NCBI GenBank assembly: GCA_964244895.1
Contig: CAXTKV010000004.1
Location: 1-31,481, forward strand
Direction of reading: 5' to 3'
From: an uncultured Deinococcales bacterium
GTDB taxonomy: Bacteria; Deinococcota; Deinococci; Deinococcales; JAAFIG01
DNA length: 31,481 bases
A program made the translations under genes and the position numbers. The notes beneath the pieces were generated by a model. It saw only the letters and a list, made by a program, of their open reading frames with translations, was not told where the DNA came from and did no database searches. Position 1 is the stretch's first letter; the number at the start of each line of letters is the position of its first letter. Shown piece by piece: positions 7,242 to 26,590 of this stretch.

Positions 7242-7316
7242 GGGCGGTTAGCTCAGCGGTAGAGCATTCGCTTCACACGCGAGGGGTCGTAGGTTCAAAT
7301 CCTATACCGCCCACCA
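7242..7316 (+). tRNA. tRNA-Val (anticodon CAC)
   Basis: Acceptor stem GGGCGGT/ACCGCCC, D arm GCTC..GAGC, anticodon loop TT-CAC-AC, T loop GGTTCAAATCC, encoded 3' CCA. Confidence 0.97.
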
Positions 7317-20840: not shown

Positions 20841-21875
20841 TTACGCGAATTCCGCCATGACCTTATCGAGCACGTCCTGGCTGGGGCGCAGCAGGCGCTC
20901 GGGCAGCAGGGCAATCGGCGTGTCGTGGACGCCTTCGGTGTCCAGGATCGTCTCGCGGGATTCGTTGATGTACACCACGCCCGTGGTCAACTCGCCGGAA
21001 CGCCGCGAATCCTCGAGCATCTTCAGGGCGCTCAGCTTGTTGGTCGGGTCGTGATCCTTGGAGAGCTTGCGGAGCTGCACCACGTCGCCGTCGTGAAGCT
21101 TGACGCTGACCACCTCGCCGGGTTCGTAATCCACGGCAATTTCGGTGTATTCGGGTACGAAGGTGATGTCGTGCAACTGCACCTCGTGCTCCTTGCCGTA
21201 AGAGTAGGACTTGGTGCTCTCATCGGCGTTGTTGAAGGTCACGCACGGGCTGATGATGTCCAGCACGGCCAGCCCGTTGAAGTTCATGGCGGCCTTCAAA
21301 AGCTCCGTGACCTGCTTGGCGTCGCCCGCAAAGCTGCGCGCCACGAAGCCCGCACCGGCCACGATCGCCTCGGCGCACAGGTCCAAGGGCGGCAGTTCGT
21401 TGGTTCCGGCGTACTTGAGCGTCTGGCCTTCGTCGGCGGTGGCGCTGAACTGGCCTTTGGTCAATCCGTAAACGCCGTTGTTCTCGATGATGTAGACCAT
21501 CGGTACGTTGCGGCGCACCAGGTGCTTGAACTGGCCCAGCCCGATCGAGCCCGTGTCGCCGTCGCCGGAGACGCCGATGGCGTGCTGGTTGCGGTTGGCC
21601 AGCATCGCGCCGGTGGCCACGGACGGCATGCGCCCGTGAACGGTGTTGATGCCGTGCGCGCCGTTCAGGAAGTACGCCGGGGATTTCGATGAGCACCCGA
21701 TGCCGGAGAGCTTGATGACCTCGTGCGGTCGGACGCCCAACTGGTAGGCGGCGTCGATGATCCGGCTCGAGATCGAATCGTGCCCGCAACCGGGGCAGAG
21801 TGTGCTGGGCAAGCCCTTGTAGTCGCTCTTCTCGAGACCGATGCTGTTCACTTTCGGTTCAACGGCGGCAGTCAC
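20841..21875 (-). CDS. korB: 2-oxoacid:ferredoxin oxidoreductase beta subunit
   Basis: LCPGCGH, SGIGCSSK, HGRMPSVATG, TPP motif GDGD...ENNGVYGLTKGQ, SPCVTFN. Substrate specificity not determinable. Confidence 0.92.
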   Translation of the reverse strand: MTAAVEPKVNSIGLEKSDYKGLPSTLCPGCGHDSISSRIIDAAYQLGVRPHEVIKLSGIGCSSKSPAYFLNGAHGINTVHGRMPSVATGAMLANRNQHAIGVSGDGDTGSIGLGQFKHLVRRNVPMVYIIENNGVYGLTKGQFSATADEGQTLKYAGTNELPPLDLCAEAIVAGAGFVARSFAGDAKQVTELLKAAMNFNGLAVLDIISPCVTFNNADESTKSYSYGKEHEVQLHDITFVPEYTEIAVDYEPGEVVSVKLHDGDVVQLRKLSKDHDPTNKLSALKMLEDSRRSGELTTGVVYINESRETILDTEGVHDTPIALLPERLLRPSQDVLDKVMAEFA

Positions 21876-21876
21876 T

Positions 21877-23697
21877 TTATTTTCCTCCCTTGACTCGCGC
21901 GGCCACGAAGGTGCCCGAGAGCGGCAGGCCGTCGCAGTGCGCGATCGAGTGGATCTTCACGGCGAATTCCGGATATTCGGAGCGCAGAATCGTGGCCAGT
22001 TGACCGTGCTGGTTGAGTTCGATCACCACGACGCGCTCGTGGCCTTCCAGGAAGGCTTTGACTTCGGCGGTCAACGGCAACGCGCGAAGGCGCAGGTAAT
22101 CCGTCTCGAGCCCTTCAGCTTTGAGCATCGCGCGACCCTCGACGATGGCCGGGTCGGTGCTGCCGAAGGCGATGATCCCGAGCGCGTGACCGCTCTCGTC
22201 CACGACGGGCTTGGGCACGATGGTGCGCGCGAAGTTGTGCTTGCGATCCAGTCGCTCGAGGTTCTTCATCCAGTCGTCCGGGCGCTCCGAGTACGTGGCG
22301 GTGTCCGTGTGGCCCGTGCCGCGCGTGAAGTAGGCCGCGCCCATCGCGTCCGTGCCGGGCAGCGTGCGCGGGCCGACGCCCGTGCCGTCCTCGTCGCGGT
22401 AGCGCGCGAACTGCCCACCGAGCGCTTTGACGTCATCGGCGCTCAGGATCTTGCCGCGCTGGATAGGCTGGTTGGGGTACTCGAACTTTTCGGACATCCA
22501 GAGGTTCATGCCCAAGTCCAGATCCGAAAGCACGAACACCGGCGTCTGAAGCGTATCGGCCAGATCCAATGAGCGCCAGCCGAACTCGAAGCACTCCTTG
22601 ACGCTGCCGGGCAGCAACACGATGTGCTTTGTGTCGCCGTGCGAGAGGTAGTACGTGCTCAACAGGTCGCCCTGCGAGACTCGAGTCGGCAAGCCCGTGC
22701 TCGGGCCCATGCGCTGCACGTCCCAGATCACGGCGGGAATTTCAGCGAAGTACCCCAATCCCGCGAACTCGCCCATCAGGGAAATACCGGGGCCTGAGGT
22801 GCTGGTCATGGCTCGAGCGCCCGCCCAGCCCGCGCCCAGCAGCATCCCGATGGCGGCCAGTTCGTCCTCGGCCTGCACGATCGCGAAAGTCGCCTTGCCC
22901 GTTTCGGGGTCGGTGCGCAATTTCGGCAGGTACTCCGTGACCGCGTCCGCCAGGCTGGTGGCCGGGGTGATCGGGTACCAGGCCATCACGCCCACGCCGC
23001 CCCAGATTGCGCCCAGACCGCCCGCCGTGTTGCCATCCACCAATATCATGCCTTCGGTGGCGTTCATGCGCTCCACGCGGTACGGGTCAGATTTAACGAT
23101 GTTCTGCTCGCACCACTGAAAGGCCGCCTTGGCGATGTTCAAGTTGGAATCCACGACCTTCTGCTTGCCACCGAAGGTCTTCATCAGGTACGCGTTGATC
23201 GCGTCCATCTCGAGCCCGATGACCTGCGCCAGCGCCCCGACGTAGACCATGTTGATCATGCGGTCGCGGAACTTCACGTCCACGTTCTGCTCTTTCATGA
23301 TCGCGTTGGCGGGTAGCGCGTAATACGCTACGTCCTCGCGGGTTTTCTCGAATTTCAGGTGATCCGGGTAAAAAATCGCGCCGCCCGTCGGCAGTTCCTT
23401 CAGGTCAGCATCGATGGTTTTGGCGTTGAACGCGACCAGCACTTCCGATTTATCGCGGCGCGCCACGTAGCCGTCCTTGCTGGCGCGGATCGAATACCAG
23501 GTCGGCAAGCCCTTGATGTTCGACGGGAACAAGTTTTTGGCGTTGACCGGGATGCCCATGTGAAACAGCGCATCCACGATGGTCGCGTTCGCGGTCTGAG
23601 AGCCCGAACCGTTGACGGTCGCGACGTTGATCGTGAAATCGTTGATCACCTGCGGGCGGGGGGTTTTCGCGTCTGGGCGTTCCTGAAGTTGGGTCAT
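21877..23697 (-). CDS. korA: 2-oxoacid:ferredoxin oxidoreductase alpha subunit (gamma-alpha fusion)
   Basis: NGSGSQT, YPITPAT, QAEDELAA, TSGPGISLM, QRMGPSTGLPT. RBS GAGAGGAAGG precedes ATG 23697. Confidence 0.92.
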   Translation of the reverse strand: MTQLQERPDAKTPRPQVINDFTINVATVNGSGSQTANATIVDALFHMGIPVNAKNLFPSNIKGLPTWYSIRASKDGYVARRDKSEVLVAFNAKTIDADLKELPTGGAIFYPDHLKFEKTREDVAYYALPANAIMKEQNVDVKFRDRMINMVYVGALAQVIGLEMDAINAYLMKTFGGKQKVVDSNLNIAKAAFQWCEQNIVKSDPYRVERMNATEGMILVDGNTAGGLGAIWGGVGVMAWYPITPATSLADAVTEYLPKLRTDPETGKATFAIVQAEDELAAIGMLLGAGWAGARAMTSTSGPGISLMGEFAGLGYFAEIPAVIWDVQRMGPSTGLPTRVSQGDLLSTYYLSHGDTKHIVLLPGSVKECFEFGWRSLDLADTLQTPVFVLSDLDLGMNLWMSEKFEYPNQPIQRGKILSADDVKALGGQFARYRDEDGTGVGPRTLPGTDAMGAAYFTRGTGHTDTATYSERPDDWMKNLERLDRKHNFARTIVPKPVVDESGHALGIIAFGSTDPAIVEGRAMLKAEGLETDYLRLRALPLTAEVKAFLEGHERVVVIELNQHGQLATILRSEYPEFAVKIHSIAHCDGLPLSGTFVAARVKGGK

Positions 23698-23980
23698 GAG
23701 CCTTCCTCTCGAGGCGCGCGGGATGAAATTCACCCGTGGAGGCCGTTGTGGGTTGCACCGGTCAATCCCGGTGCACTCTACATTGGCCTGACGGTCGCAA
23801 AACCGTCGTGGCCAAAAACGTCAAGCATTGTACCAACTCGGGGTCATACAAACACGGGTTCGCGCACGCTTTAGAATCCGTCCCTTCGTCGGGAACAATG
23901 TCCCGTTCCAAAGGGCTCCGCGACCCACGAAACTCGTCCTGAGCGCTCGAGACGCAATGCTCGAGTCCGTGGATATCAGG

Positions 23981-24027
23981 AACACCGTCTGGGACGGTGT
24001 TTCGTGAATAGCGTGCTGGACGGTGTT
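23981..24027. repeat. Paired palindrome, 47 bp (21+5+21)
   Basis: AACACCGTCTGGGACGGTGTT-TCGTG-AATAGCGTGCTGGACGGTGTT. Confidence 0.9.
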
Positions 24028-24111
24028 CCCGCTCGAGACACCCGCCATGACCGATTTACAGCAATCCCTCTCGACCCAAGCCGAACCCGCTCCCCATCGG
24101 GTCAGAACGGG

Positions 24112-24141
24112 TTGACACCCCATTCAACCTGGGCATAACAT
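24112..24141 (+). promoter_or_regulatory. Sigma70-type promoter for the mgtE leader
   Basis: TTGACA (24112-24117), 18-nt spacer, TAACAT (24136-24141). Confidence 0.6.
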
Positions 24142-24196
24142 TCTTGAGGTTCGCTCGAGATGGTTTTCAATCTCGAGAACCAGATAGGGAGGTGGT

Positions 24197-24283
24197 ATGG
24201 AACCCATTCCCAGTTCGGGGCCAGTGCCTTTATCGCGCACTTCGGGGGTTCGTGCCACGGCTCAAATCGAACACGGCTCCTGA
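24197..24283 (+). CDS. Putative 28-aa Pro-rich leader peptide MEPIPSSGPVPLSRTSGVRATAQIEHGS
   Basis: Strong SD GGGAGGT just upstream of ATG 24197, open to TGA 24281-24283. Absent from the supplied ORF track because it is short. Confidence 0.55.
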   Translation: MEPIPSSGPVPLSRTSGVRATAQIEHGS

Positions 24284-24388
24284 CAAACCCTGAATACGCT
24301 CCAGCACGGCAACGCAGCGATAAAGCCCGTGCTTCATTTTCCTGTGCGTGAAAGCGTTCAGGTCGCGCCCTTCGTGGGCTGTCAGGAG
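24277..24388 (+). promoter_or_regulatory. Structured 5' leader sequestering the mgtE ribosome-binding site
   Basis: CTCCTGACA (24277-24285) pairs with TGTCAGGAG (24380-24388, includes the SD). Nested helices: CCTGAA/TTCAGG, TACGC/GCGTG, AGCACGG/CCGTGCT, GCCC/GGGC. Confidence 0.65.
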
Positions 24389-24395
24389 GTGAGTC

Positions 24396-25775
24396 ATGAT
24401 CCAGTTCGACACGATTCTCGAGTCCATCGAACTCCTCGAGATTTTGCGCGAGGCCGAACTCGACCCGAAGCGCCGGGACGAGTTCAAACGTTTGTTGCGA
24501 ACCCAGCCGGAACCCGTGGTGGATGCGGCCTTCGAGGAAGCATCCAGGGATGAACGCCTGGAATTCTTGCGGTTGATGCCGGTGGAGCGGGCCGCGACGA
24601 CCTTCACGGACTTGCCGCTTGTGGCCCAGGCGGAATACCTGCCGGATCTGGCAGCTGACCGTTTGCGGGTGATGGGCGCGTTCATCGGCCCGGACGAGAT
24701 CGCGGACTTGCTGGGCGAACTGGGCGATGACCCACGGCGGGATTATTTGCTCAATTCCTTGCCGCCGACGCTCGCCAAGAGCGCGCGGGAACTCGAGCAT
24801 TACGACGAGGACGAGGCGGGCGGCATCATGACGCCCGAATACGTCGCACTGCGCGAGGGCACGACGGTCGCGCAGGCCATCGCGTTCTTGCGCCAGGCCG
24901 CCGATCACGCGGAAACCGTCTCGAACCTGTACCTGGTGAACGCCACGGGTCAACTTTCGGGCGTGATCTCGTTGCAGAGCCTGGTGACGGGCGCGCCGAA
25001 CGCGAAGGTGGACGACCTGGCGCGGCGCGAGATCATCTTTGCGCGCACCGACACCGACCAGGAAGAGGTCGCGCACCTGATGCGCGATTACGACCTGGCG
25101 GTCTTGCCGGTCGTGGATGCAGACGGCGTATTGAAGGGTATCGTCACGATCGACGACGTGCTGGACGTGGTGCAGGAGGAAGCCACGGAGGACATCTACC
25201 GCGGCGCAGCCATGGAAGGCTCCGAGATCGAGTACCGCGACGCCAGCCCGTTGCTGCTGTGGCGCAAGCGCATCGGCTGGTTGCTGATCCTGTTCGTGAC
25301 GGAAAGCCTGACGGCCAACGTGATTTCGGCTTACGACAAATTGATCGCGGCTGCGCCATTGTTGGCCGTGTACTTGCCGACGCTGATCGGCACGGGCGGC
25401 AACACGGGTTCTCAATCGGCGACGCTGGTGATTCGCGCGATCGCGCTCGGTCAGATTCGCGGGCGGGACGCGCTGCGGGTGCTGGTCAAGGAGTTCGGTG
25501 CGGGGTTGCTGATCGGCTTGACCATCGGCGTGGTGGCGTTCTTTCGGATCGTGATTTTTCGCAGCCAGCAGGGTGTGGGTCTGGCCGTGACCGCCGCCGT
25601 CTCGATGTTTTTCATCGCCATTTTTGCCAACATCACGGGGGCGCTCTTACCGTTGTTGTTCAAGAAGCTCCGGATCGATCCGGCCCTGACCTCGAGCCCG
25701 TTCCTGGCGACGGTCATGGATGCGACCGGCTTGCTGATTTATTTCAACATCGCCAAGTTCGTGCTGAAGCTCTGA
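24396..25775 (+). CDS. mgtE: Magnesium transporter MgtE
   Basis: Acidic N domain, AGGIMTPEY, two CBS domains (GIVTIDDVLD), GTGGNTGSQ, DPALTSSPFLATVMDATG. Confidence 0.96.
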   Translation: MIQFDTILESIELLEILREAELDPKRRDEFKRLLRTQPEPVVDAAFEEASRDERLEFLRLMPVERAATTFTDLPLVAQAEYLPDLAADRLRVMGAFIGPDEIADLLGELGDDPRRDYLLNSLPPTLAKSARELEHYDEDEAGGIMTPEYVALREGTTVAQAIAFLRQAADHAETVSNLYLVNATGQLSGVISLQSLVTGAPNAKVDDLARREIIFARTDTDQEEVAHLMRDYDLAVLPVVDADGVLKGIVTIDDVLDVVQEEATEDIYRGAAMEGSEIEYRDASPLLLWRKRIGWLLILFVTESLTANVISAYDKLIAAAPLLAVYLPTLIGTGGNTGSQSATLVIRAIALGQIRGRDALRVLVKEFGAGLLIGLTIGVVAFFRIVIFRSQQGVGLAVTAAVSMFFIAIFANITGALLPLLFKKLRIDPALTSSPFLATVMDATGLLIYFNIAKFVLKL

Positions 25776-25867: not shown

Positions 25868-26590
25868 TCACTTCCCGCCGAGCTGGCTGGCGAACAGGTT
25901 GATCGATAACCCGATGATGATCGTGTTGTAAAAGAACGAGATCAGCGCGTGGCGCAACACGGCGCGCCGGATGCCGCGATCGGAGATGTTCGTGTCCGCC
26001 ACCTGAAAGGTCATGCCGATGATGAACGAGAAATACGCGAAATCGAGGTCGTCCGGGTCGCCTTCGTCGTTGAAATCGATGCCGCCGACATCGCCGTCGT
26101 TGCGGTAGTACAGGTGCGCGTAATGAAGCGTGTAGGCCGTCTGGGTCATGAACCAGGCGACGACGACGGCGGTCACGCTGAGCAACTCCACCAGGCCGGT
26201 CGAGGTGGGGTCGATGGCTTTCACGTCGCGCAGCACCAGCACCGCCACCGCGATCGAGGCGATGCTGGAAAGCACCACCACCAGGAACACGCCCGGCCCA
26301 CCGGGGTCATCTTCGGCGGCGCGCATCCTGGTGTGTTCGGCATCGCTGTGGGTGATCAACCACCAGGCCAGCACCAGGAACACCAGCCCGCCCGCGTCCC
26401 AGGCGGCCAGAACCCGGATCAGCGGGTGAGCGTTCGAGACTCCGAGCGCGACCGCGAGGCTGACGGTGAGCGCGATCAGCAAGCGTCCGGCTGCGCCGAG
26501 CGGATCACCGGCTTCTCGCATCGTGGCGCGGATGGCGCGTCGATCGCGTTTTTGGTCGTGTCGCTTGGCGGAGCGTTCGGGGGCTTTCAC
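25868..26590 (-). CDS. DUF1345 family membrane protein
   Basis: AAEDDPG, YTLHYAHLYY, PDDLDFAYFSFIIGMTFQVADT, LRHALISFFYNT. Confidence 0.88.
   Translation of the reverse strand: MKAPERSAKRHDQKRDRRAIRATMREAGDPLGAAGRLLIALTVSLAVALGVSNAHPLIRVLAAWDAGGLVFLVLAWWLITHSDAEHTRMRAAEDDPGGPGVFLVVVLSSIASIAVAVLVLRDVKAIDPTSTGLVELLSVTAVVVAWFMTQTAYTLHYAHLYYRNDGDVGGIDFNDEGDPDDLDFAYFSFIIGMTFQVADTNISDRGIRRAVLRHALISFFYNTIIIGLSINLFASQLGGK

Follow-up and report, generated by a model that had tools for sequence, protein, structure and literature searches.

Sensing of Mg2+ by the translating ribosome is known from enterobacteria, with mgtL, corL and mgtQ as the described leaders. The account of the Salmonella mgtQ-mgtB system gives mutually exclusive RNA arrangements, 1:2 with 3:4 on one side and 2:3 on the other, together with Asp/Glu codons in the leader (Choi et al. 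2021, PMC8092293). For MgtL, an N-terminus with the residues EPDP and a destabilization of the ribosome are described (bioRxiv 2021.02.02.429294). The subject of the present analysis is the leader of an mgtE gene from an uncultured Deinococcales bacterium. It is contained in a stretch of 31,481 nucleotides, referred to here as the window (assembly GCA_964244895.1, contig CAXTKV010000004.1). A short upstream open reading frame (uORF) in this leader carries an acid-Pro-Ser(AGU) motif near its N-terminus, and the RNA contains three alternative complementarities. Judged from the sequences, from RNA modeling and by analogy with the enterobacterial leaders, the element is probably a translational attenuator of the mgtQ/mgtL kind, in which the acid-Pro-Ser(AGU) motif of the uORF would serve as the Mg2+ sensor.

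The mgtE gene is located at 24396–25775 on the forward strand, as are all parts of its leader. The full-length product of 459 amino acids contains the Pfam domains MgtE_N, CBS and MgtE and was scored at 372 bits against TIGR00400 (cut-off 233). The uORF consists of 28 codons (24197–24283) and is preceded by the Shine-Dalgarno (SD) sequence GGGAGGTGGT (24187–24196). The predicted sensor, E-P-I-P-S(AGU) at 24200–24214, is the version of E/D-P-P-S(AGU) found in the family of the window's genome. Four Pro residues appear in codons 2–11 of the uORF, a number reached by just 1 of the 326 SD-led genes of this genome. Asp, Glu and Pro together account for five residues in the same interval (five or more in 2/326). 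The uORF thus has the features of an MgtL-type leader, being a short reading frame that precedes a Mg2+ importer and has a D/E/P cluster near its N-terminus. It also has those used here to define the family, namely an SD, a start codon, an in-frame AGU that is among the first 18 codons and follows D/E by 2–4 codons, and a Mg2+-transport gene downstream. A preliminary description, prepared from the window alone, had listed a promoter, a 5′ hairpin, a strong SD and a 28-codon reading frame with four Pro residues, and all of these are present in the sequence where it placed them.

The family of the window's genome (f1) contains 19 genomes, 18 of them with mgtE, and upstream DNA was available for 16 of these loci. 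When the MgtE N-terminus was used as a metagenome query, only two loci were obtained. An SD-led uORF of 22–33 codons is located 97–298 nucleotides 5′ of mgtE in 16/16 family loci and in both metagenome loci. The family peptides are of two types, which either start with M-E-P-I-P-S or have a conserved part ending in D/E-P-E-P-L-S. An AGT codon appears at codon 4–6 or 11–17, depending on the type, and is found in 18/18 leaders at a distance of 2–4 codons past Asp or Glu; E2 is conserved. Three genera share their first eight codons base for base save one synonymous position, and the C-terminal half of the uORF is variable.

Several individual loci deviate from this arrangement. The uORF of L002 is frameshifted past codon 15, that of L025 enters mgtE without a stop codon, and L179, one of the corA leaders described below, has extra bases within the motif and a non-standard start; these damaged copies are sequencing errors or decay. 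Two genomes contain two copies of mgtE. Each copy in G031 (L029 and L089) has a different family leader peptide, and just one of the copies in G034 (L025 and L090) has an intact one.

For the order as a whole, 60 further mgtE upstream regions were picked across families by choice from the matches, and two loci were dropped for lack of upstream DNA. A uniform detector, which was designed after the data had been seen, required an SD, a start codon and an in-frame AGT 2–4 codons after D/E. It was positive for 41 of the 90 mgtE leaders and for 6 of 1383 other genes of the window's genome. The positives are distributed as 16/16 in f1, 2/2 in the metagenome loci, 20/28 in f5, 1/8 in f4, 2/32 in f2 and 0/4 in f3. 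The f5 peptides open with E-D and have one or no early Pro, and the common core is therefore the acidic residue with AGU and not Pro-richness. The description of the leader as Pro-rich is accurate for the window and does not extend to these sister-family leaders, which keep E/D and AGU. The alignment of relatives that had been suggested as a check thus confirmed the reading frame (16/16) and did not bear out Pro codons as a universal feature; the covariation of the helices, considered below, is weak.

Genomes of the Deinococcaceae (f3) are mostly without mgtE and carry the motif 5′ of corA instead. The corA of this family is 74–90% identical to the corA of named Deinococcus records. Leaders were fetched for 70 of the 104 corA genes of this type (L124–L193), and 69 of them contain an SD, a start codon, 4–16 codons and then [E/D/Q/N]-P-P-S. 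The motif Ser is encoded by AGT in 69/69 of these leaders in a search that also permitted AGC. This codon makes up 5.0% of the Ser codons in 2272 long reading frames of the window's genome and 9.4% of those in the corA genes themselves. The second Pro is CCC in 66/69, and the base after the motif is a pyrimidine in 67/69. In a test made blind to the reading frame, 69/69 leaders had the motif in the frame set by the SD-defined start; nine different spacer lengths occur among them, each divisible by three. The codons for Pro and for the acidic residue vary synonymously, both here and in the Actinomycetota leaders described below. Although mgtE and corA are not homologous, a common motif is found in their leaders. 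The uORFs before corA are 19–71 codons long and end anywhere from 126 nucleotides before corA to 59 nucleotides inside it.

A second SD-led short reading frame of variable length (about 9–60 codons) is present in 62/69 corA leaders, and its stop codon overlaps the corA start as ATGCTGA or GTGCTGA. An SD of its own precedes corA in just 11 leaders, and corA is probably translated by coupling to it. The sensor uORF crosses the start of the second frame in 61/62 leaders, an arrangement that fits occlusion by read-through. A programmed frameshift into corA was also considered and was rejected, since the distance from the motif to corA occurs in all three frames.

A DNA pattern derived from the Deinococcaceae leaders was used for an out-of-sample search of one genome per GTDB species, in which mgtE and corA leaders of the Actinomycetota were found. 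At least 120 matches were obtained, 80 of which were listed with flanks; 70 of these are in frame and 10 are out of frame. Among the listed matches, 60 of the 70 in frame precede a Mg2+-transport gene (48 mgtE, 11 corA and 1 MgtE_N-CBS), as do 0 of the 10 out of frame (Fisher p of 1e-7, a value that is overstated since kin are not independent). The listed matches are mostly from Nocardia and Streptomyces and also include Nocardioides, Terrabacter, Aeromicrobium, Goekera and Acidimicrobiia records, with uORFs of 12–31 codons. When either AGT or AGC was permitted, 19 of 401 Actinomycetota genomes were matched at 20 places, so that either the element is patchy in this phylum or the pattern is too strict. 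A link to Mg2+ transport was found for 10 of the 13 AGT matches and for 0 of the 7 AGC matches, and all four Pro codons are used among them. A loose pattern for the general acid...AGU form gave about as many matches as reversed-pattern controls, which is background level, and was not used. In L196, L201, L247 and L260 the E-P-P codons are perfectly complementary to the SD of their own uORF and fold back on it; such self-masking of the uORF start was not seen in the window. L320–L324, L332 and L232 have the motif before MgtE_N-CBS genes without the MgtE membrane domain in the same reading frame, which probably represent split MgtE systems.

The retained frame argues that the uORF is translated, and it also bears on the idea that the leader is a Mg2+ riboswitch made of RNA only, with a reading frame that falls by coincidence within conserved bases. 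Such a reading would account for the near-identity of the first eight codons in three genera, and pairing partners exist for the conserved bases: the E-P codons pair with a downstream segment of the uORF (segment 2, below), and those for E-P-P in Actinomycetota can pair with their own SD. No conserved structured core was found, the frame is held over nine spacer lengths, the peptide is kept despite synonymous change, and AGU lacks a constant partner. A small hairpin around AGU was rejected as the cause of its invariance for the same lack of a constant partner and because AGU is kept with GAG, GAC, CAG or AAC at the acid position. Covariance-model searches of the window leader gave no meaningful Rfam match at E ≤ 10, and 40 related loci (20 of the Actinomycetota-type pattern, 20 from Deinococcales) gave no Rfam match. 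The M-box (RF00380) and the mgtA leader/Magnesium-II element (RF01056) were both unmatched in the leader and in the 91%-complete genome, with positive controls from B. subtilis and L. lactis for the former and from E. coli for the latter. The preliminary description was thus right to see no M-box here, and the Rfam scan that it proposed, for ykoK and the Mg sensor, found no known riboswitch in the region. An RNA-only switch is extremely unlikely.

Decoding by a G:U wobble would make AGU a slow codon. The window's genome contains a tRNA-Ser(GCT) gene, and no tRNA with an ACT anticodon was present among the 69 found. An invariant that consists of one particular Ser codon is the usual sign of sensing at the tRNA level, which raises the alternative of a ribosome-dependent switch with another signal, such as the charging or modification of seryl-tRNA(GCU), prolyl-tRNA, EF-P activity, pH or ATP. 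The CCC at the second Pro of 66/69 corA leaders agrees with this alternative, and the Salmonella mgtM and mgtP leaders are described as sensing ATP and charged tRNA-Pro (PMC8092293). The element precedes mgtE, corA and MgtE_N-CBS genes, though, with no Ser or Pro biosynthesis genes among the matches examined. One codon would also be a weak sensor of an amino acid, and the acidic N-terminus agrees with a Mg2+-sensitive destabilization of the ribosome. A signal other than Mg2+ is accordingly considered improbable; gene context and enterobacterial precedent both point to Mg2+.

The window leader contains three mutually exclusive complementarities, 1:2, 2:3 and 3:4, as illustrated by the following coordinates. 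Segment 1 (24191–24205) covers the uORF SD and start and pairs with segment 2 (24243–24258, codons 16–21), which can alternatively pair with segment 3. Segment 3 (24272–24285) is the anti-SD strand, contains the uORF stop codon and pairs with segment 2 or with the mgtE SD. Segment 4 (24380–24395) is the ribosome-binding site of mgtE, with the SD AGGAGGTGA at 24384–24392. Within segment 3, CTCCTGACA (24277–24285) is exactly complementary to TGTCAGGAG (24380–24388) over the mgtE SD, and a perfect 9-nucleotide complement to the 20-nucleotide ribosome-binding region was found in 0.7% of 20,000 Markov-shuffled leaders. The placement of the TGA within a strand perfectly complementary to the mgtE SD region had been noted in the preliminary description. 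Helices 1:2, 2:3 and 3:4 of the window exceed random windows with p values of 0.011, 0.033 and 0.017, respectively. In 16 aligned f1 leaders, 86% of the cells for 1:2 and 83% of those for 2:3 are paired, compared with 20–58% when the segments are slid. The anti-SD helix of the preliminary description (3:4) therefore stands as one part of a larger set, in which 1:2 and 2:3 had been overlooked and which together would give a three-helix switch like that of mgtQ.

A helical insert (24289–24378) brings segments 3 and 4 close. The multi-helix domain proposed between the two arms is present at 24289–24362 in the minimum free energy (MFE) fold of the window, where the whole leader has a z-score of −2.38. 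It is not a shared part, as it is absent in most relatives, and a role of the insert as an aptamer was rejected on the same ground.

Folding of the nascent RNA was modeled with ribosomes at defined positions. For the window, the probability that segment 2 binds the anti-SD strand is 0.74–0.75 in the ribosome-free RNA and with a ribosome at AGU, 0.44 with a ribosome eight codons past AGU, and 0 with one at the stop codon. The probability at AGU is at least 0.3 in 14 of the 17 family leaders. Segment 2 begins 9 nucleotides past AGU, at the leading edge of the ribosome, in seven modeled g5 and g2 leaders, and an advance of two more codons abolishes 2:3. The stop codon is within the anti-SD strand in 6/17 family leaders and within −14 to +10 nucleotides of it in 15/17.

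These observations suggest the following sequence of events. Ribosomes would load at the strong uORF SD during transcription of the leader, and slow decoding of AGU would pause each of them when just a short nascent chain of acidic and Pro residues has been made. The paused complex would stall or split when Mg2+ is low, by an intrinsic destabilization of the ribosome of the kind described for MgtL and MgtQ, and would proceed when Mg2+ is high. With no ribosome beyond about codon 13, helix 2:3 would form first and capture the anti-SD strand, leaving the mgtE SD free (ON). Read-through of segment 2 to the stop codon would melt 2:3, after which 3:4 would cover the SD and 1:2 would block reloading (OFF); Rho might then act on the untranslated mRNA. 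The need for the ribosome to open helix 2:3 completely would explain why the stop codon is close to segment 3. The leader reading frame, its conservation, the motif, the gene association and the three complementarities are read directly from the sequences, and the direction of the switch is suggested by precedent and by the order of folding.

A number of observations weigh against this interpretation. The window lacks the canonical consecutive prolines of E/D-P-P-S, having E-P-I-P-S, and two things place it in the family: the acid...AGU spacing, which it shares, and L032, in which E-P-P-S precedes an mgtE of the family type. The motif was missed by the detector in 49 of the 90 mgtE leaders of the order, where some f2 starts are perhaps misplaced, and no such uORF was seen at the two corA genes and the mgtC of the window's genome or at the other corA loci inspected. 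At p ≤ 0.05 against random windows, 1:2 is supported in 13/17, 2:3 in 10/17 and 3:4 in 9/17 leaders, with segments that were picked by hand. Two-sided changes are few, with one pair for 1:2 (equal pairing in 22/500 shuffles) and two for 2:3 (98/500), so that covariation is weak. The zero at the stop codon in the nascent-RNA calculation is built into the model, and when the ribosome edge is set at P+15 instead of P+12 (12 of the 17 leaders run) the values at AGU fall to 0.01–0.37 for L013, L004, L006 and L007. At full-length equilibrium, the 2:3 state of the window lies 6.2 kcal/mol higher in energy than the SD-closed one; a ribosome at codons 1–20 leaves the SD closed, and one at codons 24–29 alone loosens it. 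The ON state consequently depends on the order of folding, because equilibrium favors the SD-closed fold. The models of different leaders are at odds over stalling or drop-off: most g5 leaders need a ribosome in place, and the modeled g13 and g24 leaders (f5) are more open only without a ribosome. The profiles from equilibrium scans of the opening of the ribosome-binding site were mixed, and the direction of the switch is not settled by them. The g13 and g24 leaders are closed in the models with a ribosome at the start, and these profiles fit drop-off. Other lineages are predicted by the models to use output platforms that differ from that of the window.

The loosening of the SD by a ribosome at codons 24–29 agrees with the mechanism of the preliminary description, in which the whole uORF is translated and a ribosome dwelling at its stop codon occludes the anti-SD strand, with Mg2+ setting the dwell time and termination acting as the sensor. 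The position of the stop codon close to the anti-SD strand in 15/17 family leaders fits a ribosome that unwinds 2:3 to its end and also keeps this stop-codon model alive. A stop codon within the strand itself is present in just 6/17, so it is not the key feature it was taken to be; what does not vary is the acid-(Pro)-Ser(AGU) motif at the N-terminus, which dwelling at the stop codon leaves unexplained. The last codons are not conserved, L002 is frameshifted, and the stops of the corA leaders range from well before corA to within it. Efficient read-through would moreover turn the importer ON at high Mg2+, which is the wrong direction unless termination is itself Mg2+-sensitive. Sensing at the stop codon is thus unlikely. 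What stands of the MgtL-like leader with translational output is the conserved reading frame tied to Mg2+ importers and the anti-SD pairing.

The same sensor could have a mainly transcriptional output, through a Rho site or a terminator as in enterobacterial mgtA and corA, with the anti-SD pairing being secondary. A rho gene was found in 18/18 family relatives (14 above the cut-off), and a U-tract follows the 2:3 hairpin in three g5 leaders (L004–L006), where this hairpin is also the predicted ON helix. The window has a perfect 9-nucleotide anti-SD; its sole terminator-like site is weak and at chance level (24142–24160), and none was found 3′ of the uORF, in line with the preliminary description. 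No rho match was found in the 91%-complete assembly of the window, which is most likely due to its incompleteness. A mainly transcriptional output is very unlikely for this leader, and a translational attenuator with the motif as its Mg2+ sensor is preferred.

Even weight is given, for and against, to the broader view that this leader belongs to a class of Mg2+-sensing leader peptides, hitherto undescribed, that spans the Deinococcota and Actinomycetota. The invariant AGU would act as a decoding timer behind an acidic/Pro chain, and the class would be a counterpart of the M-box and MgtL that is reused before MgtE, CorA and MgtE_N-CBS genes with several RNA outputs. No account of the motif, or of an mgtE or corA leader peptide in either phylum, was found in the open full text of PMC and bioRxiv, a scope that leaves subscription papers mostly outside. 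If this view is correct, the identity of a synonymous codon would gate the destabilization of the ribosome. Loss of the Mg2+ response upon a silent change of AGU to AGC would make codon identity and the waiting time at the A site part of Mg2+ sensing, and would bear on the choice between stalling, drop-off and RNA folding as the primary sensor in leaders of the mgtA type. The element would extend ribosome-based Mg2+ sensing to two distant phyla, with Deinococcus and Streptomyces among their model organisms, and its motif provides a handle for the search of a class of small reading frames overlooked by gene callers. The window peptide gave no match to NCBIfam (E ≤ 10) or to Pfam, searches whose sensitivity is limited by its shortness. 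Its exact sequence is absent from a collection of 15 billion proteins, as are all five of the leader peptides looked up there.

The remaining features of the locus are as follows. A predicted sigma70-type promoter, TTGACA-18-TAACAT (24112–24141), is the sole promoter-like site within 23700–24500 (0.3 in shuffles). Of the 18 related leaders examined, 16 have the TTGACA box 51–135 nucleotides 5′ of the start codon of the uORF, one is cut by a contig end and one is without it. A 5′ hairpin at 24154–24177, which can be extended to 24148–24181, is present in the MFE fold and probably marks the start of the transcript. It is probably accessory, as relatives have other hairpins or none and its sequence is not conserved. 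The sole match of the window to Rfam at the gathering score is a tRNA gene (7242–7313, forward strand). The neighbors of mgtE are a divergent 2-oxoacid:acceptor oxidoreductase operon (20841–23733, reverse strand; alpha subunit TIGR03710) and a convergent DUF1345 gene (25868–26590, reverse strand), for which no connection to the leader was seen. A palindrome of about 20 nucleotides resembling repetitive extragenic palindromic (REP) elements, with ACCGT..ACGGT arms, is found on both sides of mgtE. Five copies are present in the window (5078, 23984, 25834, 26696 and 28828) and 409 in the genome.

By analogy, the leader would work like mgtQ and like mgtL/corL, yet it falls outside the Rfam and protein families searched. 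The M-box or ykoK element (RF00380), including the translational M-box of Mycobacterium tuberculosis with a uORF as described in PMC12810186, is alike in its cis control from the 5′ leader and in mgtE-type import; the conserved element of the window is a reading frame, and no aptamer was matched in its leader or genome. The Thioalkalivibrio mgtE motif SRC-65-1 (Narunsky et al. 2024, PMC11109978), compared here by its description only, is also an orphan structured leader, the last stem of which contains the mgtE SD and AUG. It is given there for Thioalkalivibrio only and as a riboswitch candidate, with no uORF in the description consulted, and may hide a uORF of the same or a similar kind; candidate uORFs are reported in that paper as well. 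The mgtL-mgtA and corL-corA leaders (RF01056; PMC11552253, bioRxiv 2021.02.02.429294, PMC12856214) share a stem that hides the uORF SD and an alternative stem. MgtL further resembles the window peptide in its N-terminal E-P (EPDP in MgtL, EPIP in the window) and in the predicted repression by read-through. These leaders differ in their output by Rho-dependent termination instead of an anti-SD helix and in phylum; an AGU requirement is not part of the portions of these accounts consulted. Abortion of translation that is caused by acidic codons and depends on Mg2+ and bL31 is a trait of the mgtQ type; the gene for bL31 is present in the window's genome. Salmonella mgtQ-mgtB, as described in PMC8092293, is alike in its short acidic uORF and the Mg2+ importer downstream; its exclusive stems, the hiding of the ribosome-binding site by 3:4 and the translational output are predicted for the window leader as well. 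Its uORF has 8 codons, lies between genes of mgtCBRU ahead of one for a P-type ATPase and can dispense with Pro, whereas the uORFs of the window's family have 22–33 codons, a position in the 5′ leader, mgtE downstream and an invariant Ser-AGU. The comparison made here is one of architecture.

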